Below are positions 1 to 14,840 of a stretch of DNA of 32,000 nt, piece after piece; positions within the stretch are counted from its first letter, which is position 1, and the number at the start of each line of letters is the position of its first letter. This stretch comes from an uncultured Mollicutes bacterium (lineage in GTDB: Bacteria > Bacillota_I > Bacilli_A > RF39 > UBA660), in assembly GCA_945969495.1 (NCBI GenBank), contig CAMFOH010000003.1, forward strand, positions 1 to 32,000, in the 5' to 3' direction. Made by a program: the position numbers and the translations under genes. A model generated the notes under the pieces. That model did not search any database and was not told where the DNA came from. It saw nothing but the letters and a program-made list of their open reading frames with translations.

Positions 1-4
1 TGCA

Positions 5-847
5 ATGGTTTGCCCAAAATGTGGAAGACAATTAAAAGTAGTAAAAAAAGAAGAAATATCAGCTTCAGAAAAAAGCAGCGAAGCTAAATATGATGAATCA
101 AGTAAGTTTTATGCTAAAGCATGGTTTATGTGGGTAATGCTTATAATCTTTGCTCCAGTAGGAATTTTCTTAATGTGGAAGTTTCATCCAGAAATGAAAA
201 AGAACACAAAAATAATTCTAACTGTTGTATTTGCAATACTATTTTTAGCTATCGCATTTGGAGGAAATAGTGATGAAACAACTACAAACAATAACAGTTC
301 AAACTCAAATAGTAATACAAATACGGTAAGTAAGGTAAAAGTTGAAGTAATTGACTTTAGTGGTATGTCAGAAAGCGAAATATTGACTTGGTGTAAAGAG
401 AAAAATTTAAATTGTGATTTTAAAAGAGAATATTCAGACACTGTAGCAAAAGATGGTTACATAAAACAAAGTGTTAATGCAACTGAACAAGTTACAGAGG
501 GCAGTAAAATAACTATTACTTATTCATTAGGAAAAGAACCTACTACTGAACAAAAGAATGCATTAAGAAAAGCTGAATCTTATGCCAAAACTATGCACAT
601 GTCAAAACAAGGTATTTATGATCAATTAACATCTGAATATGGAGAAGGTTTTGATAAAGAAGCCGCTCAATATGCTATTGATAATATTGAATGGGATTGG
701 AATGCCAATGCACTAGCAAAAGCTAAATCATATAGGGATACAATGAGTATGTCTAAAAATAGAATTTACGATCAATTAATATCACAATATGGAGAAAAAT
801 TTACTAAAGAAGAAGCTCAATATGCTATTGACCATTTAGATGATTAA
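5..847 (+). CDS. Membrane-anchored surface protein: N-terminal zinc-ribbon (CPKCG), one TM helix, Asn/Ser-rich linker, PASTA-like domain, two tandem Ltp-like (host cell surface-exposed lipoprotein, PF07553-type) repeats
   Basis: Long ORF. MVCPKCG lies at the N-terminus and a hydrophobic segment (WFMWVMLIIFAPVGIFLMW) follows. VEVIDFSGMSESEILTWCKEKNL...GSKITITYSLG fits the PASTA pattern. Two repeats of the form A..YA.TMHMSK.GIYDQL.S.YGE.F.KE.AQYAID are typical of the Ltp family. The start sits 4 nt from the window edge, so an upstream extension cannot be excluded. Confidence 0.8.
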   Translation: MVCPKCGRQLKVVKKEEISASEKSSEAKYDESSKFYAKAWFMWVMLIIFAPVGIFLMWKFHPEMKKNTKIILTVVFAILFLAIAFGGNSDETTTNNNSSNSNSNTNTVSKVKVEVIDFSGMSESEILTWCKEKNLNCDFKREYSDTVAKDGYIKQSVNATEQVTEGSKITITYSLGKEPTTEQKNALRKAESYAKTMHMSKQGIYDQLTSEYGEGFDKEAAQYAIDNIEWDWNANALAKAKSYRDTMSMSKNRIYDQLISQYGEKFTKEEAQYAIDHLDD

Positions 848-895
848 AATTGATAGTCTTTGATAAACGATTATAGATTATGATATTAATATAGG

Positions 896-920
896 AGATT
901 ACCTAAAAGGTAGTCTTTTT
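896..920 (+). terminator. Rho-independent terminator after the first CDS
   Basis: Stem AGATTACC (896-903) pairs with GGTAGTCT (909-916), with one G-U pair. Loop is TAAAA, followed by a T-run. Confidence 0.65.
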
Positions 921-971
921 CTATGATTTTAAGAACTTACTAAAAAATTGCGAAAAATCGTCAAAAAAGTA

Positions 972-995
972 TTTTAGATACCTTTTTAGATACCT
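972..995 (+). repeat. Perfect tandem duplication of the 12-mer TTTTAGATACCT (2 units)
   Basis: 972-983 and 984-995 are identical. The same pair occurs at 3753-3776. Confidence 0.95.
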
Positions 996-1049
996 TCTGC
1001 TAGGTTTCCCAAGTGCTGTCGGAAGCTCCCAAGTGCATTCAATAGCTGA

Positions 1050-1145
1050 AAAAAGCCACAAAATGCTCTGGAAAGCCACCGAAAAACCCACTATAAAAAG
1101 CCATGTGGAAGTGGACGCAAATATAAGCAATGTTGTGGCAAATAA
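1050..1145 (+). pseudogene. Start-less gene 3' fragment encoding a SEC-C (SecA C-terminal zinc-finger type) tail, copy A
   Basis: 1101-1145 translates to PCGSGRKYKQCCGK followed by a stop. The frame is open only back to the TGA at 1047-1049 (KKPQNALESHRKTHYKK...). There is no ATG or RBS. Confidence 0.7.
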
Positions 1146-1146
1146 G

Positions 1147-1185
1147 CCCACAAACCTGCATAGAATAAGGGATTGCGGGTTTTTC
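1147..1185 (+). terminator. Possible terminator after SEC-C fragment A
   Basis: Imperfect stem CCCACAA (1147-1153) with TTGCGGG (1173-1179), one mismatch and a long loop, followed by TTTTT. Confidence 0.4.
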
Positions 1186-1227
1186 TATGATTGAAATTTT
1201 TAGGTAATTAAGCCTCAAAAAAGGCAA

Positions 1228-1249
1228 TTAGATAAGTTTTAGATAAGTT
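1228..1249 (+). repeat. Perfect tandem duplication of the 11-mer TTAGATAAGTT (2 units)
   Basis: 1228-1238 and 1239-1249 are identical. A related pair (TAGATAAGTT twice, period 12) lies at 2301-2322. Confidence 0.9.
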
Positions 1250-1326
1250 TTTTATCAATTTGGAATACTTTTTTAGATTACAAAATATTAATATTCCAAA
1301 AATTATAATAAATACTTTTGATTACA

Positions 1327-1335
1327 TGATATAAT
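1327..1335 (+). promoter_or_regulatory. Extended -10 promoter element (TGATATAAT) for the lipoprotein gene
   Basis: TGnTATAAT match about 20-30 nt upstream of the start codon. Confidence 0.5.
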
Positions 1336-1352
1336 GATAATGAAAGGAGTAT

Positions 1353-2222
1353 ATGATTTGTATGTCAAAAAAAATTATTAGTTTATTTTTACTTATTGTT
1401 ATGGTATTTGGACTAACAGCATGTGGAAAAAGTGAAGATAATGGAGGTTCTAATTCAATAGCAAGTAAAGAACTTAAAGCAAGTGATTTATCAATAGAAG
1501 ATTTTAAATGGGAAACAAATTCAAGCAAATGTAATGGTTATGACTGCTATGTAGTGTCTTTAACTAACAATTCTAAATATGATATTATCGGTGTTGACTT
1601 TTCATATAAAGTAAAAGATAGTGTTTCAGAAAGCCAACTAAATGTCTATGATAAATTCATGAAAGACCACGACGGATACATAGAAGAAGATGATTCTCCA
1701 AAAGATGTAACATTAGGAGCAAACAAAAATGTATTAGTTCAAAAAGGCGAACAAATAAGTGGTTTAAATTTGACCGTAGGCTTTAAAAATTGGTTTTGGT
1801 ATGATTACCCTACTGATGAACAATTTAACCTTATGGAACCAAAAGAACTTCAAATTGGAATAGTAAGTGGTAATAAATTATATATTGCTTATTATAACTT
1901 CAAAGGCAAGTCTTGGAAATTAGATAAAAAAACAGTTGTAGTTGATGAGTGGACAAAAAATGAAATAGGTAAAAAACTTAATAAGCCTAACGGACAACAT
2001 TTTGTTGTAAAAACTGATGATGATGAAGAATTTGAAATATATTCATACGGTGTTACAAAAGATATGTATAAAGAATATGTTCAAAACTTAAAAACATCAG
2101 GTTTCAACGAAGACGATTCTTATTCATCACATTTCGAAGGAACAAACTCTGATGGCTATACAGTTGAAGTTTACCATTATGAAAATGAAAAAACTTTAAG
2201 TATAAGCATTGAAAAAGAATAA
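1353..2222 (+). CDS. Lipoprotein of unknown function
   Basis: Signal peptide with lipobox LTAC (..LLIVMVFGLTACGK). GGAG at 1346-1349. The ATG at 1362 (MSKKIISL..) has better spacing than 1353 and may be the real start. Confidence 0.8.
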   Translation: MICMSKKIISLFLLIVMVFGLTACGKSEDNGGSNSIASKELKASDLSIEDFKWETNSSKCNGYDCYVVSLTNNSKYDIIGVDFSYKVKDSVSESQLNVYDKFMKDHDGYIEEDDSPKDVTLGANKNVLVQKGEQISGLNLTVGFKNWFWYDYPTDEQFNLMEPKELQIGIVSGNKLYIAYYNFKGKSWKLDKKTVVVDEWTKNEIGKKLNKPNGQHFVVKTDDDEEFEIYSYGVTKDMYKEYVQNLKTSGFNEDDSYSSHFEGTNSDGYTVEVYHYENEKTLSISIEKE

Positions 2223-2300
2223 ACATAAAACTATAAAAAAAAACCACTTTTTTTCTTTGATTGGGAAATTAAGATAATGTGATATATTAAATAAATTTTT

Positions 2301-2322
2301 TAGATAAGTTTTTAGATAAGTT
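2301..2322 (+). repeat. Tandem TAGATAAGTT direct repeat (2 units, period 12)
   Basis: 2301-2310 and 2313-2322 are identical. Same motif as 1228-1249. Confidence 0.85.
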
Positions 2323-2363
2323 GTATGAAAAAAAACTTACAATTTATCAATAAAAAATTATAA

Positions 2364-2468
2364 ATTTTAAATAAAAAAACCCAATTTAAAAGTAAAAAAT
2401 TACCTGGTTGTTTTAATATTTTACCATGTGGCAGTGGTAAGAAATATAAACAATGTTGTGGAAGATAA
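2364..2468 (+). pseudogene. Start-less SEC-C tail fragment, copy B
   Basis: 2424-2468 translates to PCGSGKKYKQCCGR followed by a stop. The open frame reaches back only to the TAA at 2361-2363 (..KKTQFKSKKLPGCFNIL..) and has no start codon. Relative to copy A it carries an in-frame 33-nt insertion. Confidence 0.7.
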
Positions 2469-2480
2469 TAAAAACGCCCA

Positions 2481-2507
2481 AAAAACCCAATAAATACGGG
2501 TTTTTTT
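2481..2507 (+). terminator. Rho-independent terminator after SEC-C fragment B
   Basis: Stem AAAAACCC (2481-2488) pairs with GGGTTTTT (2498-2505). Loop is 9 nt, with a T-run. Confidence 0.55.
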
Positions 2508-2532
2508 AATTTTCCGAATACTTCAGAATATA

Positions 2533-2625
2533 CTTTAGATACCTTTTTGGATACCTTCCGATGAGTATCTAAAAGGTATCTAGATACCCTTTTTAGGTGT
2601 AAATTCGCAATTTTTTAGCAAGATT
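2533..2625. repeat. Rearranged copy of the 5' part of element R: one + oriented 12-mer pair followed by an inverted copy. Includes a perfect 14-bp palindrome.
   Basis: CTTTAGATACCT/TTTTGGATACCT at 2533-2556. GAGTATCTAAAA plus GGTATCTAGATACC (2575-2588, self-complementary). TTCGCAATTTTTTAG (about 2604-2618) is the reverse complement of CTAAAAAATTGCGAA at 940-954. Confidence 0.8.
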
Positions 2626-2765
2626 TTAAAATGCACTATTTCCTTTATTTATAAGGGATTGTAAGTAATTTTGCTTAGTTAGAATATAGAATTTTGTCCA
2701 TTATCAAAGTGACATAGATAAAAATTTTAAGAATAATAATATAAATATAATTTTTTGTATTTTTG

Positions 2766-2774
2766 TGCTATAAT
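2766..2774 (+). promoter_or_regulatory. Extended -10 promoter element (TGCTATAAT)
   Basis: TGnTATAAT match about 50 nt upstream of the ATG at 2826. AAGGAG RBS at 2811-2816. Confidence 0.5.
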
Positions 2775-2825
2775 TAATGTAGAGTAGTTGAAACTTGTCA
2801 TTTCAAAATAAGGAGTGTGTAGTAT

Positions 2826-3629
2826 ATGGCAATGATTAAATGTCCAAAATGTGATAAAGAAATATCAGACAAGGCAGTGAAATGTGTTCATTGTGGTCAA
2901 GAGTTAATTGAAAAAACAAATTTATTTTGTAGTGAGTGTGGAACTGAAATAAAAGATAATGAAGATATATGTAGCAAGTGTGGATGTCCTATTGATCGAA
3001 AAAAAGATTCTGAACCACAAAAAGTAGAAGTCACTGGAGTAAAAATAGGAAATGGTATTCCAAAGAAAAAAATAATAATAATTGGAGTTATTATAGTATT
3101 ACTTGTATTTGGATTTGTAGCAATAAAAAATAATAGTGATAAAAAGAAAGCAGAAGAATTGAGCAGTCAGTATAAAAGTAATTTAAGTACAATTACATTT
3201 AAGATGTTAAGTGGTGCTGCAGAAGCTGAAACATGTGGAAATAAAATAAAAAAAGTATGGTCCAATACAATATGGGAAGATGATGATCCAGAAACAGATA
3301 AATATACTAAAACTAATGGAATATTTAATGATGATTTTAATGATTCTTTAACTGCATTATTTACTGATTCTGATTTTAAAAAGATAACAGATAGTGTTGA
3401 GGAAAATCAAGGTGAAGTAAATAAGCTTATGAGGGAGATGAAGAATCCGCCGGAAGAATGGTCAGATGCTTATCGTGATCTAAAGGATTATTATGATGAT
3501 TATTTAACATTAACCAATTTGTGTACAAATCCAAGCGGAAGTTTACAGACATACTCGACAAATTTTAGTAATGCAGACACTGATGCATTAAATGGATATA
3601 ATAAGGTTAAGTCATATTTAGATTACTAG
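2826..3629 (+). CDS. Double zinc-ribbon / single-TM membrane protein with an extracytoplasmic domain of unknown function
   Basis: CPKCDK...CVHCG and CSECG...CSKCGC motifs, a TM helix (IIIIGVIIVLLVFGFVAI), a good RBS, and a terminator directly after the stop. Confidence 0.8.
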   Translation: MAMIKCPKCDKEISDKAVKCVHCGQELIEKTNLFCSECGTEIKDNEDICSKCGCPIDRKKDSEPQKVEVTGVKIGNGIPKKKIIIIGVIIVLLVFGFVAIKNNSDKKKAEELSSQYKSNLSTITFKMLSGAAEAETCGNKIKKVWSNTIWEDDDPETDKYTKTNGIFNDDFNDSLTALFTDSDFKKITDSVEENQGEVNKLMREMKNPPEEWSDAYRDLKDYYDDYLTLTNLCTNPSGSLQTYSTNFSNADTDALNGYNKVKSYLDY

Positions 3630-3648
3630 AAATTAGTAATCTTTTTTT
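3620..3648 (+). terminator. Rho-independent terminator
   Basis: Perfect 9-bp stem AGATTACTA (3620-3628) with TAGTAATCT (3634-3642). Loop is GAAAT, followed by a T-run at 3643-3648. Confidence 0.75.
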
Positions 3649-3711
3649 AAAAAATGTTGAATAAAAGACATAGCAAACTTTTTGTGTTATGTTCAATAAA
3701 TATAATGAAAT

Positions 3712-3926
3712 AGGAATTTGCTAAAAAATCACGAAAAATCGTTAAAAAAGTATTTTAGATACCTTTTTAGATACCTTCTGCTAGATTTCCAAAGTGCTGT
3801 CGGAAGCTCCCAAGTGCATTCAAGAGCAAAAAAGGACCACAAAATGCTCTCAAGAACTCCCAAAAATCCCAAATTACAAGCCATGTGGTTCGGGCAGAAA
3901 AATATAAACAATGCTGTGGAAAATAA
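3712..3926 (+). repeat. Repeat element R, copy C (paralogue of 931-1145), immediately upstream of prfB
   Basis: See copy A. Contains the perfect tandem 12-mer at 3753-3776 and a frameshifted SEC-C tail. Confidence 0.9.
3785..3926 (+). pseudogene. Start-less, frameshifted SEC-C tail fragment, copy C
   Basis: The frame is open from the TAG at 3782-3784: ISKVLSEAPKCIQEQKRTTKCSQELPKIPNYKPCGSGRKI followed by a stop. Removing one A from the A-run at about 3896-3901 restores ...RKYKQCCGK and a stop at 3924-3926. Confidence 0.65.
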
Positions 3927-3946
3927 TCCCAGTGTTTTTTTGTGTT

Positions 3947-3981
3947 TTGACATGTTATTAATACATTATTTATGATATAAT
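3947..3981 (+). promoter_or_regulatory. Candidate prfB promoter: extended -10 TGATATAAT (3973-3981), with TTGACA (3947-3952) at non-canonical 23-nt spacing
   Basis: Motif match only. The 5' UTR would be short, with the AGGTGA RBS at 3989-3994. Confidence 0.4.
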
Positions 3982-3998
3982 GAATAATAGGTGATTAT

Positions 3999-5106
3999 AT
4001 GGCAATTACAAATAAGAATATTTTATTATTAGAAGAAAAATTCAAACAAATATGGAGTTGTCTTTGACGTATTAAAAAAACAAGAAAGAATAGCTTCATT
4101 AAATGAAAAAATATCTAATCCTAATATATGGAATAATCCATCAGAAGCAGAAACTTTGACTAAAGAAATGAATGAATTAAAAGAAATAGTTAATCCATTA
4201 TTAATGCTGAAAGAAAATATAGATACTCTTAAACAATATGGGGAGTTCAATGAGATTGATTTAGATGATGATATGAATAAAGAATTTGAAAAATTATATT
4301 TTGATTCTAAAACAGTATTAGAAGAACAAGAAATTTTAACTTATTTTAGTGGTGAGTTTGATAATAATGATGCAATTTTTGAGATACATGCAGGAGCAGG
4401 AGGAACAGAAAGTTGTGATTGGGCACAAATGCTAGAAAGAATGTACTTGAAATATTTTGATAAAAAAGGTTTTAAACATGAACTAGTTGATGTCCAGCCA
4501 GGAGAAGAAGTTGGAATTAAAAGTGTAGTATATATAGTGAAAGGCAATTTTTCTTATGGTTATTTAAAAAATGAAAAAGGAGTCCATCGTTTAGTTAGGT
4601 TATCACCATTTGATTCAAACAATAGAAGACATACATCTTTTGCAGCGGTTGATGTCATTCCAGAATTTGATTCTGATATACAGGTAGAAATAAATGATTC
4701 TGATATAAGAATTGATGTATATAGAAGTAGTGGCGCAGGCGGACAAGGTGTTAATACTACTGATAGTGCTGTAAGAATTACTCATCTTCCAACGGGTATT
4801 GTTGTTACTTGTCAAAACGAAAGAAGCCAAATAAAAAACAAGGAAATTGCTTTAAAGGTATTAAAAAGTAAGCTTTATCAAATTAAATTAAAAGAAAATC
4901 AAAGTAAAATTGATAATATGAAAAGTTCTAATAGTAATATAGAGTTTGGATCACAAATAAGAAGCTATGTGCTTCATCCTTATTCTTTAATAAAAGACCA
5001 TAGAACTGGATATGAGACTTCTAATGTTAATAAAGTATTAGATGGAAATATAGATGAATTTATAGATAGTTATCTAAGAAAGGAAAGAAAAGATGAAACT
5101 ATTTAA
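3999..5106 (+). CDS. prfB: Peptide chain release factor 2, requiring a programmed +1 ribosomal frameshift at 4062-4068
   Basis: Frame 0 from 3999 to 4064 reads MAITNKNILLLEEKFKQIWSCL, then the in-frame TGA at 4065-4067. Skipping T4065 continues DVLKKQERIASLNEKISNPNIWNNPSEAETLTKEMNELK... in the frame of the tracked ORF 4156-5106. The SPF motif (LSPFDS) and GGQ motif (GAGGQGVN) are present. Confidence 0.93.
4054..4068 (+). promoter_or_regulatory. RF2 autoregulatory +1 frameshift site (SD-like GGAG, then CTT TGA C)
   Basis: GGAG at 4054-4057, a 4-nt spacer, and CTTTGAC at 4062-4068. This matches the canonical CUU UGA C slippery/stop context. Confidence 0.9.
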
Positions 5107-6001
5107 AAAAATAAAAGAAAAAAGAAAGGAAAACGTCCTTCAACTTGTTGAAAAAACTCATTTATTAAAAAGGTATTTTCTTTTAGTAATTGCAGTAGGA
5201 ATATATGCAGTAGCTTATAATTTATTCTTTTATAAAAATAATATTGTTTACGGTGGTGCAAGTGGTATATCAATAATTACACAAAATTTAATTGAACCAT
5301 CTGTTATGATATTTATATTAAATGTATTTTTCTTAGTTTTAAGTTTTTTTCTATTGGGCAAAAAGCAAACATTAGATTCAATAGTAGGATCACTTTTATA
5401 TCCTATTTTTGTAAAATTAACCGCTAATATAGGTAACTATATAGTAATTGATAATTCCGATTTATTACTTATTACTATAATAGGTGGTGTTTGCGTAGGC
5501 TTTGCATCTGGAATTGTTTTTAAAAGTGGTTTTACTACTGGAGGTACAGATATACTAAATCAAATTGTTTCTAAGTGTTTTAAAGTATCTATTGGAACAT
5601 CAATGTTAATGACTGACGGCTTGATAGTTCTTGCTGGTGGATTTTTCTTTGGTTGGACAAGGGTTTTATATGCACTTATAGTTTTATATATAATAAATAT
5701 AATGGTTGATAAAGTAGTTTTAGGAATATCAGGAAGTAAAGCTATTTATATTACTACTGATGCTGATGATGAAGTATGTAATTATTTATTAAATGAATTG
5801 AAGTTAGGAATAACTTTGCTTGAAACAAGAGGGGGATACACTAATAAGAAAGATCAAATTATTATGTGTGTAGTTCCAACCATTGACTATTTTAAAGTAA
5901 GTGAGGGAATTGAGCAGATAGATCCAAAAGCAGTTGTTTTGGTTACAGATGCATATCAAACTAGTGGAACATATAGAGGTAACACAAGAACTAATAGATA
6001 G
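5093..6001 (+). CDS. YitT/YvjA-family (UPF0750, DUF2179-containing) membrane protein
   Basis: Multi-TM N-terminal part with GGASGISII and GGTDIL motifs, plus a C-terminal soluble domain. Overlaps the prfB stop by 14 nt. Same position as yvjA after prfB in Bacillus subtilis. Confidence 0.8.
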   Translation: MKLFKKIKEKRKENVLQLVEKTHLLKRYFLLVIAVGIYAVAYNLFFYKNNIVYGGASGISIITQNLIEPSVMIFILNVFFLVLSFFLLGKKQTLDSIVGSLLYPIFVKLTANIGNYIVIDNSDLLLITIIGGVCVGFASGIVFKSGFTTGGTDILNQIVSKCFKVSIGTSMLMTDGLIVLAGGFFFGWTRVLYALIVLYIINIMVDKVVLGISGSKAIYITTDADDEVCNYLLNELKLGITLLETRGGYTNKKDQIIMCVVPTIDYFKVSEGIEQIDPKAVVLVTDAYQTSGTYRGNTRTNR

Positions 6002-6029
6002 AATTAAAGAAGTAAAGGAAGGGATTTAA

Positions 6030-6728
6030 ATGGAATTTATAAAATTTAAAAACGTTGAAAAAACATATAAGAATGGTGTTAATGCAGTTTATGATATGAA
6101 CCTTGATATAAAAAAAGGAGAGTTTGTGTTTATAATAGGTGCATCAGGGTCAGGCAAATCAACGTTAATAAAAATGTTGTATCGAGAAGAAAAACCTACT
6201 AGTGGAGAAATTTACGTTGGTGGGGTTAACGTTGCTAAGGTAAAAAATAATAAAGTTTATAAATTAAGAAGAAAAATAGGAATAGTTTTTCAAGATTATA
6301 AATTACTTCCTAAATTAACGGTATATGAGAACGTAGCATTTGCTCTTGAAATATATGGATTGCCCACTGATGAGGTTAAAAGAAAAGTTTTGAAAGCTTT
6401 AGACTTAGTTGGATTAAAATCTAGAACAAAAAGTTATCCTGATCAGTTATCTGGCGGAGAGCAGCAAAGAGTTGCAATAGCTCGTGCAATAGTTAATTCT
6501 CCAAAACTTTTAATTTGTGATGAACCGACTGGTAATTTAGATCCTGATACTAGTTTAGAAGTTATGAAGGTAATTGAAAAAATTAATGACTTAGGAACTA
6601 CTATTGTAATGGCAACACATGATAGGGAAATGGTTGATAAAATGAAAAAAAGAGTTGTTTTATTAGATAATGGTAAATTAATTAAAGATTATGAGAAGGG
6701 AAGTTATAGTAATTATGAGAGCAATTAG
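6030..6728 (+). CDS. ftsE: Cell-division ABC transporter ATP-binding protein FtsE
   Basis: Walker A GASGSGKST, signature LSGGEQQR, Walker B LLICDEPTGNLD. Followed by ftsX. Confidence 0.93.
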   Translation: MEFIKFKNVEKTYKNGVNAVYDMNLDIKKGEFVFIIGASGSGKSTLIKMLYREEKPTSGEIYVGGVNVAKVKNNKVYKLRRKIGIVFQDYKLLPKLTVYENVAFALEIYGLPTDEVKRKVLKALDLVGLKSRTKSYPDQLSGGEQQRVAIARAIVNSPKLLICDEPTGNLDPDTSLEVMKVIEKINDLGTTIVMATHDREMVDKMKKRVVLLDNGKLIKDYEKGSYSNYESN

Positions 6729-10963: not shown

Positions 10964-11869
10964 ATGGAAATAACGAAACAAATGGTTGATGAAGATTTTA
11001 TGCAATTAAAAGGTTTAGCAAAAATAGGAAAAGATATACATTCACCATATTTTTGCTCTTATGATAATATTTATCCATTTACCAATGACAGACTAAAAGA
11101 TATATTTAAAACGTTAGACACTAGTAATGGGGTGCTTACTGTTACTGCATCTGGAGATCAAGCTTTAATGGCTATATTAAATGGTGCTCCATATGTTAAA
11201 ATGTTTGACATTAATCACTTGGCAAAGTATTTTGCAATATTTAAATTTACCTCCATATCATGCTTATCATATGATGAATTTATAAGACTATACAAAATAA
11301 ACGTACCATTTTCTAATTCTATCGCAGGAGGTTTTTTAACCAACCCAGATGTTAAATTGTATAATAAAGTATGTTCTAACACAGACTATGTTTGTGCCAG
11401 ATTTTTTGAGTTGCTTTATGAATTTATGGAAACCGCAACAGTTGGTGAAAAATTCAACCTAGTTAATATTAAATATTATCCTAAATTAGCAGGATATTTA
11501 ACACGTAATGATTATGAAGAACTAAAATGGAAAATAAAAAACATATCAGCTTTAGATTTTGTTGATTGCAGCATATTTGATTTAAAACAAAATTTAGGTA
11601 ACGAAATTTATTCAGCGATGTTGTTTTCTAATATAAGTAGTTATTTTAATAAATCAGAATTAGAAAATTATTTAAAATTATTAAAATCTTTAGAAGAAAA
11701 TTTAACTAATGATGGTTTAATTCAAGCTGGATATGGAACTATAAAATATAAACCAGACAGTATAGGAAAAAACAGCATGGATCCTAAATTTATTGATGAT
11801 AATAGAAACTGTTTTTTTGAAACAAAATCACATGGAATGATGACTACCTTTTATAAGCGTAGTAAATAA
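10964..11869 (+). CDS. DUF3419/BtaA-like (SAM-dependent-fold) protein of unknown function, inserted between uvrB and uvrA
   Basis: VLTVTASGDQALMAILNGAPYVKMFDINHLAKYFAIFKFTSISCLSYDEFIRLY resembles, from memory, the N-terminal signature of DUF3419/BtaA-type proteins. No search was run. Confidence 0.45.
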   Translation: MEITKQMVDEDFMQLKGLAKIGKDIHSPYFCSYDNIYPFTNDRLKDIFKTLDTSNGVLTVTASGDQALMAILNGAPYVKMFDINHLAKYFAIFKFTSISCLSYDEFIRLYKINVPFSNSIAGGFLTNPDVKLYNKVCSNTDYVCARFFELLYEFMETATVGEKFNLVNIKYYPKLAGYLTRNDYEELKWKIKNISALDFVDCSIFDLKQNLGNEIYSAMLFSNISSYFNKSELENYLKLLKSLEENLTNDGLIQAGYGTIKYKPDSIGKNSMDPKFIDDNRNCFFETKSHGMMTTFYKRSK

Positions 11870-11959: not shown

Positions 11960-14773
11960 ATGGATAAAATAATAGTAAAAGGTGCTAGGGAAAATAATTT
12001 AAAAAACGTGGATATAGAAATACCAAAAGATAAACTAACCGTTATGACTGGTGTATCAGGTAGTGGCAAATCAAGTTTAGCCTTTGATACGATATACGCA
12101 GAAGGACAAAGAAGATATGTAGAAAGTTTGTCCGCTTATGCAAGGCAGTTTTTAGGAGGAACATCAAAACCTGACGTTGATTCCATTGAAGGGCTTTCTC
12201 CATCTATTTCAATAGATCAAAAAACTACTAATAATAATCCTAGATCAACGGTTGGTACAGTAACTGAAATATATGATTATTTTAGACTTTTGTTCGCTAG
12301 AATAGGTGTACCATATTGTCCTAATCATAACATTCCAATATCAAGTCAATCAATTGAAGAAATGACTATACAGATTATGAATGAAGAAGATGGAACTAAA
12401 TTAATTATTATGTCTCCTGTTGCATATGGTGAAAAAGGAACTTTTAAAGATCTTTTGGATAACTTAAGAAAAGAAGGTTATGTTAGGGTTAAAATAGATG
12501 GCGAAACAAAAGATTTAAGCGAAGAAATTATTTTAGATAAAAATAAAAAACATAATATCTTAGTAGTGATAGATAGAATAATAAAAAAAGATGATGCAAG
12601 AAGTAGAATATATGAAGCCTTGGAACTTGCATGTAAATTATCTAAGGGAAAAGCTGTTGTAGAAATTCCTGGAAAAGATGAAATTGTTATGAGTGAATCT
12701 TTCGCGTGCCCACATTGTGATTTTTCTTTAGAAGAATTAGAACCTAGAATGTTTTCATTTAACGCCCCTTATGGTTCATGCCCTGATTGTAAAGGGTTAG
12801 GATTCAAACAAAAAATAAGCGAACAATTGATTATTCCTGATAAAGAAAAAACACTTGCAAGAGGGGGCATAGAACCACTTTCTGGTATGGATGATCAAAA
12901 TATTTATATTAAAAAGCTAGAGATTGTATGCGAAAAATATAATATTGATATGAACAAGAAGATGAAAGATTTAACTAAAAAGGAATTAGATATTATTCTT
13001 CAAGGCACAAAAGAACCTATTGAATTTAATTTTAAAACTAGAAGTGGTAACGTCATGAATAGTTTTGAACCATATGAAGGAGTTTTAAATAATTTAGAAA
13101 GAAGGTATTTTGAGACTAATAGTGAATTCATAAGAGAATGGCTTGGCAAATACATGGTTGAGCTTACTTGTCCTACTTGTCATGGTAAGAGACTAAAAGA
13201 AAGTGTTTTATCAGTTTTAATAAATAAAAAAAACATAATTGATTTAACTGACATGAACATAGATAAATTATATGATTTTTTTGGTAAATTAAAATTAAGC
13301 AAGGAAAAAGAAGAGATAGCTAAACTATTAATTAAGGAAATAAAGTCACGGTTAGAATTTTTACATAACGTTGGACTTGGCTATTTAACATTATCTAGAA
13401 GTGCTGGAACTTTATCAGGAGGTGAAGCTCAAAGAATAAGGCTTGCAACTCAAATAGGTTCGCAGTTAACAGGAGTTTTATACGTACTTGATGAACCAAG
13501 CATAGGCCTTCATCAAAGGGATAATCAAAGGTTAATTGATTCATTATTAAAAATGAGAGATTTAGGCAACACCTTAATTGTTGTAGAGCATGATACCGAT
13601 ACCATGCTTCAGGCAGATTATTTAGTGGACGTTGGCCCTGGTGCTGGAGACCATGGAGGAGAAATCGTAGCATGTGGAACACCTAGCGAAGTTATGCAAA
13701 ATTCTAATAGTTTAACCGGAGATTATTTAAGCGGAAGAAAGCAAATAGAAGTTCCTTTAAAAAGAAGAAAAGGTAATGGTAAATTTATTGAGATTAAAGG
13801 TGCAAAAGAAAATAACCTTAAAAATATAAACGTTAAATTTCCTTTAGGTAAACTGGTTTTAGTAACTGGAGTATCTGGTTCTGGTAAAAGTAGTTTAGTA
13901 AATCAGATTTTATATAAGGCACTTGCTTTAAATGTATATGGATCAAAAGTGATTCCTGGAAAGCATAAAGCAATAAAAGGATTAGAAAATATTGATAAAG
14001 TAATAGATATAACGCAAGACCCAATAGGAAGAACACCACGTAGTAATCCTGCAACTTACGTTGGAGTGTTTGATGATATAAGAGATGTTTTTGCTCAAAC
14101 CAAAGAAGCTAAAATAAGAGGATATGAAAAAGGCAGGTTTTCATTTAATGTTAAAGGTGGTAGATGTGAAGCTTGCTGGGGTGATGGTGTAAAAAAAATA
14201 TCAATGAACTTTTTGCCAGACGTATATGTTCCATGTGAGGTATGTGGTGGTACAAGGTTTAATAAAGAGACACTTGAAGTTAAATATAAGGGTAAAACAA
14301 TTTATGATGTACTTCAAATGAGAGTAGAAGAAGCTTTGGACTTTTTTGAAAATCATCCTAAAATAAAACGTAAGTTACAAGTTTTGGTGGATGTAGGACT
14401 TGGTTATATAAAATTAGGGCAAAGTGCTCCAACTTTATCAGGCGGAGAAGCATCTAGGGTTAAGCTTGCAAAAGAACTTCAAAAAAAACCAACTGGTAAA
14501 AGTGTCTTTATCTTGGATGAACCAACTACTGGTCTTCATAGTGATGATATAAAAAGGTTATTATTAATTTTAAATAGAATAGTAGATAATGGAGATACGG
14601 TAATCGTTATTGAACATAATTTAGACGTAATAAAAGTTGCCGATTACATAATTGATTTAGGCCCAGAAGGTGGAGATAGTGGTGGTGAGATTGTTTGTGA
14701 GGGAACTCCAGAAGAAGTAGCAAAATGCACAAAATCATACACTGGTCAATATTTAAAAAAAATATTAAAATAA
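11960..14773 (+). CDS. uvrA: Excinuclease ABC subunit A
   Basis: MDKIIVKGARENNLKN N-terminus, two ABC modules (GVSGSGKSS twice, LSGGE twice), and zinc-finger cysteines. The ORF opens at 11927, but the ATG at 11960 has an AAAGGTGA RBS and the family-typical N-terminus. Confidence 0.96.
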   Translation: MDKIIVKGARENNLKNVDIEIPKDKLTVMTGVSGSGKSSLAFDTIYAEGQRRYVESLSAYARQFLGGTSKPDVDSIEGLSPSISIDQKTTNNNPRSTVGTVTEIYDYFRLLFARIGVPYCPNHNIPISSQSIEEMTIQIMNEEDGTKLIIMSPVAYGEKGTFKDLLDNLRKEGYVRVKIDGETKDLSEEIILDKNKKHNILVVIDRIIKKDDARSRIYEALELACKLSKGKAVVEIPGKDEIVMSESFACPHCDFSLEELEPRMFSFNAPYGSCPDCKGLGFKQKISEQLIIPDKEKTLARGGIEPLSGMDDQNIYIKKLEIVCEKYNIDMNKKMKDLTKKELDIILQGTKEPIEFNFKTRSGNVMNSFEPYEGVLNNLERRYFETNSEFIREWLGKYMVELTCPTCHGKRLKESVLSVLINKKNIIDLTDMNIDKLYDFFGKLKLSKEKEEIAKLLIKEIKSRLEFLHNVGLGYLTLSRSAGTLSGGEAQRIRLATQIGSQLTGVLYVLDEPSIGLHQRDNQRLIDSLLKMRDLGNTLIVVEHDTDTMLQADYLVDVGPGAGDHGGEIVACGTPSEVMQNSNSLTGDYLSGRKQIEVPLKRRKGNGKFIEIKGAKENNLKNINVKFPLGKLVLVTGVSGSGKSSLVNQILYKALALNVYGSKVIPGKHKAIKGLENIDKVIDITQDPIGRTPRSNPATYVGVFDDIRDVFAQTKEAKIRGYEKGRFSFNVKGGRCEACWGDGVKKISMNFLPDVYVPCEVCGGTRFNKETLEVKYKGKTIYDVLQMRVEEALDFFENHPKIKRKLQVLVDVGLGYIKLGQSAPTLSGGEASRVKLAKELQKKPTGKSVFILDEPTTGLHSDDIKRLLLILNRIVDNGDTVIVIEHNLDVIKVADYIIDLGPEGGDSGGEIVCEGTPEEVAKCTKSYTGQYLKKILK

Positions 14774-14803
14774 CGAGTGAAATTAAAAGCTACGAATAAT
14801 AAT

Positions 14804-14840
14804 AAAGTAGAGATTTATATAATCTTTACTTTATTTTTTT
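14804..14840 (+). terminator. Rho-independent terminator after uvrA
   Basis: 12-bp stem AAAGTAGAGATT with AATCTTTACTTT (one G-U pair), followed by a long T-run. Confidence 0.75.

Follow-up and report, generated by a model that had tools for sequence, protein, structure and literature searches.

In recombination systems of the lambda, L5 and Tn916 type, the arm sites are bound by the N-terminal domain of the integrase, and in lambda and L5 the interval between arm and core is occupied by sites for Xis, IHF and Fis. An intrinsic bend is said to be able to take the place of IHF in lambda recombination, a result attributed to Goodman and Nash in 1989. Cis-mobilizable elements (CIMEs) are integrase-less elements that retain attL and attR and lack the genes for integration and transfer (PMC5704250). 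Tandem accretion at the 3' end of a gene is known for ICESt1 and ICESt3 at fda in Streptococcus thermophilus (PMC5704250), and in the tycheposon islands of Prochlorococcus repeated integration at one site pushes older elements inward (bioRxiv 10.1101/2020.12.28.424599). Here we describe a locus at the 3' end of secA, in a 32,000-nt stretch of DNA from an uncultured Mollicutes bacterium (contig CAMFOH010000003.1; this whole stretch is called the window below). Upstream of prfB, the first 4 kb of the window hold three short units, each closing in the last 12-15 codons of SecA, and two of the junctions carry a near-identical block of 107 nt. These two blocks are very probably arm sequence: they would form the distal and most constrained portion of the right-hand arm (P-type, attR-side) in two related integrative cassettes that have no integrase and are inserted at secA.

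We compared the window with contigs and loci from other genomes, samples and viral contigs, which are designated by L numbers. The two blocks, copy A at 940-1046 and copy C at 3721-3827, differ at 6 of 107 positions (949, 950, 962, 1004, 1010 and 1043), that is, they are 94.4% identical. A first-pass annotation of the sequence had reported this pair, together with a perfect tandem 12-mer (TTTTAGATACCT twice, at 972-995 and 3753-3776), a 9-mer direct repeat (CCCAAGTGC at 1008-1016 and 1028-1036), a GC-rich composition (28 G/C among the 60 nt of 1001-1060) and two offsetting 1-nt indels in the diverged part 3' of the block, and all of these were recovered in our alignment; GC content is 0.44 for 1001-1100 versus 0.28 for the whole window. 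The left edge of the homology is abrupt (~936/3717) and follows directly upon unrelated cargo and a terminator-like hairpin (893-919). On the right, the sharp drop in identity that had been described is real, but identity steps down to ~70-80% and does not fall to background. In windows of 20 nt it amounts to 0.95-1.0 as far as ~1037, 0.8 at 1037-1065 and 0.6-0.75 through the SEC-C tails. Likewise, the peptide VLSEAPKCIQ lies in the SEC-C frame in copy C as had been proposed, but in copy A it is out of this frame and runs into a stop. We found one more junction of this type, a diverged one, at 2299-2468; inverted and left-hand versions of the site occur at 1227-1249 and 2534-2632. The motif TTTAGATAMSTT has 15 matches in the window when up to one mismatch is allowed, versus 3.0 expected, and none of 100 shuffled sequences reached 15; 11 of the 15 matches fall within 973-3777.

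The position of the crossover was inferred from strains, species and junctions. Each of the three units ends in a SEC-C tail, PCGSG(K/R)KYKQCCG(K/R)* (1101-1145, 2424-2468 and 3881-3926), and each tail opens with the octamer CCATGTGG, the Pro-Cys-Gly codons of the SecA SEC-C motif (1101-1108, 2424-2431 and 3881-3888). We assembled 102 SEC-C tail junctions from many genomes; the exact octamer is present in 68 of them and most of the others are one base off. Contigs L005-L011 were retrieved because they encode a YitT protein identical to that of the window, and they were assigned to the same species on this ground. These six contigs are 100% identical to the window from position 3882 (CATGTGG of tail C) through prfB, as listed for 3882-4200, and upstream of 3882 they carry wholly different genes (GntR-ABC, DUF4190, DUF2207, a methylase and HNH restriction system, NT5C/HD). 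Arrays that differ entirely between strains with 100% identical flanks indicate recent gain and loss at the core. Two of these contigs, L005 and L006, extend into secA; their secA genes show one substitution up to ...CCATGCCCATGTGG, which ends in CCATGTGG, and diverge from the next base. The functional secA of each terminates in an element-specific tail. The same holds between species, since cassette 1 of the window, L033 and L097 has a common arm up to CCATGTGG and then different tails. Among all junctions, 87 pairs are at least 90% identical over the 100 nt left of the core and nearly all of these are only 0.4-0.7 identical on the right; conversely, 27 pairs are at least 90% identical right of the core and most are at background (0.25-0.6) on the left. 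The left and right flanks of the core assort independently. Together, the strain breakpoints, the divergence of secA, the L033/L097 tails and the decoupling of the flanks indicate that the crossover takes place in or at CCATGTGG.

This result displaces the core that had been proposed earlier, either in a SEC-C-frame segment (1012-1041) or at the edge of the block: the true core lies 55 nt further on. The edge at 1046/3827 can be rejected as a crossover because the strain breakpoints lie at 3881/3882 and directly past CCATGTGG, and the drop in identity at 1046 does not mark a recombination breakpoint. The step falls within a phased spacer, and it fits a core-proximal half of the arm that is less constrained; this half is also the more variable one across the family, and in an alignment of 44 right-hand (R) modules, copies A and C resemble different sub-lineages in it. 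The segment 1007-1100, which had been taken for a displaced remnant of the target gene, does not resemble the part of secA that precedes the SEC-C motif and has a periodicity of 10 nt rather than 3 nt; it is part of the arm of the element and not of secA.

The arms are built from a tandem repeat of TTTAGATAxx, where xx is CC, CG or AG. In the 44 R modules the sequence TTTTAGATAxxTTTTTAGATAxxTTCTGCTAGG is essentially invariant while neighboring columns vary, and the dimer is kept, together with TTCTGCTAGG, at a fixed distance from the core. In 49 of the 102 tails, the start of the dimer precedes the AARTAYAAR codons by 141-150 nt; this corresponds to ~105 nt from dimer end to core. The repeats are found on both arms at set offsets from these codons (-150 to -141 and +80 to +110), and every cargo gene of the window is flanked by them on both sides. 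The right-side dimers (972-995, 2299-2322 and 3753-3776) have a 12-nt spacing and lie ~105 nt before the CCATGTGG of the tail; the left-side dimers lie 80-110 nt past the preceding tail, at 1227-1249 (11-nt spacing) and at 2534-2557 with inverted units continuing to 2588. The CC-type arms have outer ends that repeat one another in inverted orientation (926-969 versus 2589-2632; repeat I1, 44 nt, 77% complementary). The dinucleotide xx is the same in the left (L) and right sites of one cassette in 12 of 14 cases, 11 of them scored by script and one, the AG/AG pair of the window, corrected by eye after it was mis-scored by the regular expression, whereas across a tail, between neighboring cassettes, it matches in only 7 of 13. 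Both arms therefore travel together with the cargo that they enclose.

Between dimer and core lies a strongly periodic spacer. The 9-mers mentioned above belong to a run of seven 10-nt-phased repeats, of the form (C)CNAGTGC or A-tract-GC, that follows the dimer. All seven GC dinucleotides of 1001-1100 are in one 10-nt phase (1015, 1025 ... 1075), and across the family 196 of 284 GC dinucleotides, counted in 35 modules, share a single phase. Some relatives, L220 among them, have textbook phased A-tracts here (GGGCAAAAAA, GGGCAAAAAA, GGGCTCCCAAAAGCC ... in L220). At least three types of core-proximal half can be recognized: one is GC-phased and is found in copies A and C, another is AT-rich and is found in junction B, and there is one further type. 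Tandem arm repeats of a third kind (CTGGAGCCA ...) were seen in L189, where they lie beside an integrase (11380-11440 and 13200-13260). This integrase is 58% identical to the L244 type described below over its aligned residues 127-369 and adjoins a SEC-C tail that looks decayed by eye, which suggests that arm-repeat type and integrase N-terminal domain were swapped as modules.

The features of the window are as follows.

5-847, plus strand: cargo gene of cassette 1, a protein with a Zn-ribbon, TM, PASTA and two Ltp domains (Pfam Lipoprotein_Ltp 1.6e-52, PASTA 3e-9); its N-terminus is cut by the start of the window, and homologues in L100, L015 and L033 begin ~47 nt further upstream.
893-919, plus strand: intrinsic-terminator-like hairpin closing the transcript of cargo 1 (terminator scan).
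926-971, plus strand: right (P-type) arm of cassette 1, outer end, with CTTACTAAAAAATTGCGAAAAATCG, which is repeated in inverted form at 2589-2632; many R modules have ACTAAAAAATTGCGAAA at the corresponding arm position.
972-995, plus strand: tandem arm-type repeat TTTTAGATACCT twice, CC variant, a putative integrase arm-binding site kept in the 44 R modules.
996-1006, plus strand: conserved junction (T)TCTGCTAGGTT after the dimer, with columns at least 75-90% conserved in the 44-module alignment.
1007-1086, plus strand: seven to eight 10-nt-phased repeats (TCCCAAGTGC, TGTCGGAAGC, TCCCAAGTGC, ATTCAATAGC, TGAAAAAAGC, CACAAAATGC, TCTGGAAAGC ...), defined by GC phase.
1101-1108, plus strand: core CCATGTGG of junction A, placed by the L033/L097 divergence and flank decoupling.
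1109-1145, plus strand: displaced SEC-C tail remnant A, SGRKYKQCCGK* (repeat families D4 and D5), with the motif intact and an in-frame stop upstream.
1147-1186, plus strand: terminator-like hairpin and T-run past tail A, seen by eye and missed by the terminator scan; by our model it belongs to the left arm of cassette 2, and segments homologous to 1101-1209 follow tails in many loci.
1227-1249, plus strand: left-arm repeat of cassette 2, ATTAGATAAGT TTTAGATAAGTT, AG variant with 11-nt spacing; a site of the same type abuts a phage-type integrase in L244.
1353-2222, plus strand: cargo gene of cassette 2, a lipoprotein (DUF6591, Pfam 1.5e-11).
2299-2322, plus strand: right-arm dimer of cassette 2, TTTAGATAAGTT twice, AG variant as in its own left site.
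2323-2423, plus strand: AT-rich type-2 core-proximal arm of cassette 2, aligning with L006_5235, L080, L102_5000 and L124_5708.
2424-2468, plus strand: core CCATGTGG (2424-2431) and SEC-C tail remnant B, SGKKYKQCCGR* (repeat family D5); the homology of many loci starts exactly at 2424.
2480-2506, no strand assigned: terminator-like hairpin past tail B (terminator scan).
2534-2588, plus strand: left-arm site of cassette 3, TTTAGATACCTT TTTGGATACCTT, CCGA and inverted units TATCTAAAAGGTATCTAGA, CC variant (repeat D3); homologous to the site directly after secA in L005, L100 and L015.
2589-2632, plus strand: inner end of this left arm, TTCGCAATTTTTTAGCAAG, inverted repeat (I1) of 926-969.
2826-3629, plus strand: cargo gene of cassette 3, a double zinc-ribbon membrane protein (Pfam).
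3717-3776, plus strand: right arm of cassette 3, outer segment and TTTTAGATACCT twice (3753-3776), that is, copy C.
3788-3867, plus strand: phased 10-nt repeats of copy C, the first four conserved with copy A and the later ones decayed.
3881-3926, plus strand: core CCATGTGG (3881-3888) and SEC-C tail remnant C, whose frame is shifted by an insertion of 1 nt; no further junction separates it from prfB.
3999-5106, plus strand: prfB, encoding release factor 2 (Pfam PCRF and RF-1), the conserved downstream flank of the cassette array.

The prfB gene has its usual programmed +1 frameshift site (CTT TGA C, ~4062-4068), which explains why the ORF finder splits it into a start at 3999 and a main ORF from 4156. 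Within the first ORF of the window, a direct repeat (557-690 versus 707-840, 150-nt spacing, 75% identity) corresponds to the two Ltp domains, which are of a phage superinfection-exclusion type; the ORF also has a weak match to PD-T4-6.

Because the two sites of a cassette share the dinucleotide, we considered the possibility that the dimer itself (TTTAGATA type) is the crossover site of another recombinase, for instance a serine recombinase with xx as central dinucleotide, that direct repeats of this site flank the cassettes and that the SEC-C tails are mere passengers. The similarity of L and R sites indeed runs a few bases beyond the dimer (CTTCYGNT), and L179 has an L site that adjoins unrelated DNA, with a tail lacking. 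This explanation nevertheless appears very improbable and was ruled out as a placement of the crossover by the breakpoints and by the decoupling at the core: all examined strain- and species-level breakpoints are at CCATGTGG, integrase-bearing relatives have the same layout and core with a different dimer sequence, and tandem plus inverted copies are typical of arm-type sites rather than crossover sites. No serine recombinase was seen either, although our systematic queries addressed tyrosine integrases only and other neighboring genes were sampled by Pfam scans of selected ORFs.

With the core placed at CCATGTGG, the extent of the elements can be defined: each runs from core to core and comprises a new tail, a terminator, a left site, cargo, a right site, a spacer and the next core. 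The three cassettes of the window (cargo at 5-847, 1353-2222 and 2826-3629) are bounded by matching left and right sites and none has an integrase; cassettes 2 and 3 each enclose one cargo gene between an L and an R site. Elements of the TTTAGATA type measure 0.9-3.6 kb and 49 of 51 are without an integrase; integrase fragments occur in a few of them (L145 and L179). We scanned one genome per species for the dimer pattern, and the dimer was found together with multiple SEC-C tails (up to 5 per 8 kb) in dozens of uncultured metagenome-assembled genomes (MAGs) from the gut, labeled as Bacilli, Mollicutes, Tenericutes, Erysipelotrichaceae or 'Clostridium sp. CAG:710'.

The cargo is diverse. When the TTTAGATA-type cassettes of all loci are taken together, 79 cargo ORFs reach 100 aa or more, and 75 of these are co-oriented with secA, which recalls integron arrays. 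The cargo includes full-length aminoacyl-tRNA synthetases, namely TyrRS, MetRS and class-I LysRS (Pfam 1e-74 to 1e-131; L038:4280-5524 on the minus strand, L084:875-2506 on the plus strand, also in L137 and L145, and L053:3294-4865 on the plus strand). Many cassettes carry anti-phage or defence-type genes, including a type II methylase with an HNH nuclease, an MmeI-like type IIG enzyme, RhuM/PDC-S05 and AAA_14-DUF4143/PDC-S01 (L006:1982-4160, L045:3292-5802, L095:376-1383 and L042:875-2140, with 5-847 in the window).

The first 1,154 nt of the window are 94.2%, 97.6% and 92.3% identical to cassettes of other species (L033, L015 and L100, respectively), whereas the interval from prfB to ftsX of L033 is only 76.7% identical to that of the window; cassette 1 has thus spread horizontally between species. 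More generally, arms are 90-99% identical across genomes of different species, even where the sequence past the core differs. The protein of cassette 3 is found in identical form on four short-read contigs (L001-L004) of 1.0-1.2 kb each. The right ends of L001, L002 and L004 lie inside the right arm, from which it follows that the conserved arms fragment short-read assemblies of the locus, and the left ends of L001 and L002 pass the inner left-arm repeat.

It could be argued that the cassettes are inert relics, i.e., prophages or integrative mobilizable elements (IMEs) at secA that decayed by deletion and left their att ends behind, the block being functionless and conserved only because the decay is recent. 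Decay of this sort has been described for CIMEs (PMC5704250). The lack of an integrase in the window, the integrase fragments of L145 and L179, the frameshift in tail C and the stop before tail A are all in line with such a history. We consider it unlikely, however, since it does not readily account for arms that remain 90-99% identical between species when the sequence past the core does not, for a dimer and spacing that are invariant while adjacent columns vary, for a cassette that is ~92-98% identical across species whose housekeeping genes are ~77% identical, or for arrays that are wholly different between strains with 100% identical flanks.

The block could also be conserved as a structured small RNA or as a transcriptional operator or terminator module regulating the cargo, an idea already raised in the first-pass annotation. 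On either strand, copy A is more stably folded than shuffled sequence (z = -2.97). Moreover, the phased repeats of the CC subfamily (1018-1084 of the window and arms in L005, L097 and L124) fold, when read on the minus strand, into a long and imperfect hairpin (z of -3 to -3.9); the larger CG/AG subfamily has no such fold, and the hairpin is therefore best viewed as a curiosity of the subfamily. Across the family, median folding z is -0.35 on the plus strand and +0.58 on the minus strand, and RNAalifold, run on 26 modules, yielded consensus energies of -2.8 and -2.1 kcal/mol for the plus and minus strands with no covarying pair. A scan of 1-4200 against Rfam gave only chance-level matches (best E 0.64, hence none with E < 0.6). 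A conserved RNA or single-stranded DNA structure was discarded as a family-wide feature on the basis of these 26 members, which have neither a consensus fold nor covariation on either strand. Since the block also lies downstream of the cargo terminator and accompanies unrelated cargo genes, a role in RNA structure or cargo regulation is hardly credible.

Integrases were found in related elements. Tyrosine integrases are found inside some arrays (L076, L090 and L106), the L076 type having the domains PF00589, Phage_int_SAM_3 and Arm-DNA-bind_4. A metagenome scan with the L076 integrase returned 79 distinct loci, 44 of which were examined: SEC-C tails lie beside most of the integrases, all on the strand of the integrase and none on the opposite one, either ~320 nt past the gene or flanking elements of 9-10 kb. 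These larger elements are bounded by secA and a displaced tail and also encode an HTH_17 Xis-like protein and a Mob_Pre (MobV) relaxase. In L159, the interval from the secA tail to the displaced tail contains genes for an AAA_25/DnaB-like protein, a Mob_Pre relaxase, an HTH_17 (excisionase-type) protein and an integrase, a gene content that identifies the element as an IME. Its arms have the layout seen in the window, with the same distances to the same core, and are built on a different tandem repeat (TTGTTTGCA type). The integrases of L159 and L179 possess Arm-DNA-bind_4, SAM_3 (SAM-like) and PF00589 catalytic domains. Extra split or truncated integrase genes follow the secA tail of L159 and again its displaced tail (5034-6429 and 14026-14805), which shows repeated IME integration and decay at one core.

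Phages provide a second set of relatives. A pattern scan of viral contigs gave 40 matches, of which three are real (L220, L226 and L244) and 37 are chance matches in AT-rich DNA. In L244, the gene for a phage-type integrase points toward a left site of the TTTAGATAAG type, which lies directly against its 3' end, and a cI/S24 repressor follows the integrase; L196 has the same arrangement, with an integrase 48% identical to that of L244. The right ends of prophages L220 and L226, which carry genes for tail fibres, holin, lysin and restriction-modification, present a TTTAGATACC R block with phased repeats and the core. These left sites and right ends indicate that the block shares ancestry with the attR arm of temperate phages integrating at secA. 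In cultured phages we found no DNA similar to the block, and the search with the L244 integrase gave relatives of only ~29% identity. The window cassettes are miniature integrase-less versions of such elements with both arms intact. The attR-type junction first proposed, in which arm sites are followed by a core and a displaced tail of secA, was thus right in kind, as supported by strain polymorphism, ~100 junctions and integrase-bearing relatives, although its core was misplaced and part of the arm was misread as secA.

An integron-like platform, in which the junctions would be attC-like single-stranded hairpins served by one dedicated integrase, deserves consideration for the small, mostly one- or two-gene cassettes without recombinase, the common orientation of 75 of 79 cargo ORFs and the palindromic left site of the CC type. 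Yet the R module has no conserved hairpin in the 26 modules, the crossover lies within a protein-coding octamer, the layout is bipartite with arm and core as in lambda-type att sites, and the associated integrases have arm-binding domains. In addition, no IntI-type gene lies beside the array, the integrase query being empty in the window and in ten related array loci. Features of attC were thus searched for as conserved structure and as an integrase beside the arrays of the window's species, with negative results; the R/L box consensus was not scanned. On this evidence we give an integron of the classical kind very little credence.

Returning to integrase-less cassettes at secA, we propose that the elements integrate by tyrosine-integrase site-specific recombination at CCATGTGG in the SEC-C codons at the 3' end of secA. 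The incoming element would supply a replacement SEC-C tail and a terminator and push the older tail downstream, and secA would stay intact because each element supplies such a tail. The resulting array would read secA-core, tail-terminator-L site-cargo-R site-phased spacer-core, tail ... prfB. The TTTTAGATACCT or TTTAGATAxx dimer is the putative arm-type site for the N-terminal domain of the integrase, with direct and inverted copies in the left arm, and the xx variants would reflect different binding specificities. The phased repeats may bind an Xis-like accessory protein on one face of the helix or may form a static bend; either role would bring the arm-bound integrase to the core. Having no recombinase, the window cassettes would move only in trans or in cis, in the manner of CIMEs, and the recombinase would likely come from an integrase of phage or IME type, encoded either at another place in the cell or by an element that enters it. 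Indirect indications of such mobilization in cis or trans come from the co-occurrence of the cassettes with IMEs and prophages in arrays and from horizontal spread.

Some of our observations weigh against this interpretation. The integrase query found no integrase in the 32-kb window or in the related strain loci of the same species, and the window cassettes are therefore only putatively mobile at present. No integrase was found adjoining an arm of the CC variant, phage-type integrases being present only beside AG/CG-type variants. The loci of the genome scan were fetched with the dimer pattern itself, which biases the frequency of dimer-bearing junctions upward. Finally, in L179 (13701-14180) a TTTAGATAAG left site directly follows the N-terminal fragment (145 aa) of an integrase, and neither a tail nor a terminator precedes the site; this junction is not predicted by a crossover at the core and may result from deletion or secondary recombination.

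A broader view is possible, and we advance it tentatively, as the less probable side of the matter: the secA-prfB interval would be a true integron-like gene-capture platform made of lambda-type att sites. Mini-cassettes (0.9-3.6 kb, one or two co-oriented genes) would be selected to keep complete attP arms and would be shuffled in trans by unrelated phage- and IME-type integrases converging on the 8-bp SEC-C core, with the spacer replacing host bending proteins. If true, defence and spare housekeeping genes (restriction-modification, RhuM/PDC-S05, TyrRS, MetRS and LysRS) would be carried between species by this route. The cassettes offer an explanation for the hypervariability of the secA-prfB interval, which lies between two essential genes, in a large group of uncultured gut bacteria, and the core CCATGTGG, the TTTAGATAxx dimers and the phased spacer give annotators of metagenomes rules to delimit them. 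The zinc-binding SEC-C codons of secA may constitute a new integration target on which several integrase lineages appear convergent. Small cassettes with intact arms also represent a natural set of att sites and cargo with which to study arm-site specificity (CC, CG or AG) and the role of curvature versus accessory bending proteins.

How does this locus compare with known systems? Integrative mobilizable elements with a MobV relaxase and a tyrosine integrase (PMC5357655, PMC5704250) are represented by the L159-type relatives in the same arrays; the window cassettes differ from them in lacking Mob_Pre, AAA_25/DnaB-like, HTH_17 and integrase genes and in having TTTAGATAxx instead of TTGTTTGCA arm repeats. 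Like integron cassettes, they are small, mostly promoter-proximal, co-oriented and without a recombinase of their own, but there is no IntI, attI or Pc and no conserved attC-like fold, and a duplex core is flanked by arm sites. Tycheposon islands resemble the arrays in the displacement of older elements by serial insertion at one site and in cargo that, in a streamlined genome, stands between partial copies of the target gene, whereas the target there is a tRNA gene and here a protein-coding motif, and the elements here are mostly integrase-less mini-cassettes with intact arms.

CIMEs resemble the cassettes in being integrase-less with attL and attR, in their tandem arrangement at the 3' end of one gene and in the restoration of the target end upon each integration. 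In contrast to them, the cassettes described here are many, very small (0.9-3.6 kb) and spread over many species with strongly conserved arms, and at least some of these arms match the ends of prophages rather than those of IMEs or integrative and conjugative elements (ICEs). With lambda-type att sites (the lambda, L5, HP1 and Tn916 class), the locus shares a short core that every junction contains, arm-type repeats arranged in tandem in each arm at ~100-140 nt from that core, an interval of repeated or bendable DNA between arm sites and core and, among its relatives, integrases with Arm-DNA-bind, SAM-like and catalytic domains accompanied by an HTH_17 Xis-like gene. It differs in that the window cassettes keep their arms with no int or xis, that the spacer consists of strictly 10-nt-phased A-tract/GC repeats and that the core lies inside the SEC-C codons of secA, an integration target for which our full-text literature searches found no report, yielding only general papers on ICEs and IMEs and one paper that speaks of SecA2-SecY2 alone. 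The junction is thus a mobile-DNA junction of an ordinary kind at a target gene, secA, that does not appear to have been reported before; what is unusual is a protein-motif core common to phage-type and IME-type integrases, the many conserved mini-cassettes and the phased A-tract spacer.

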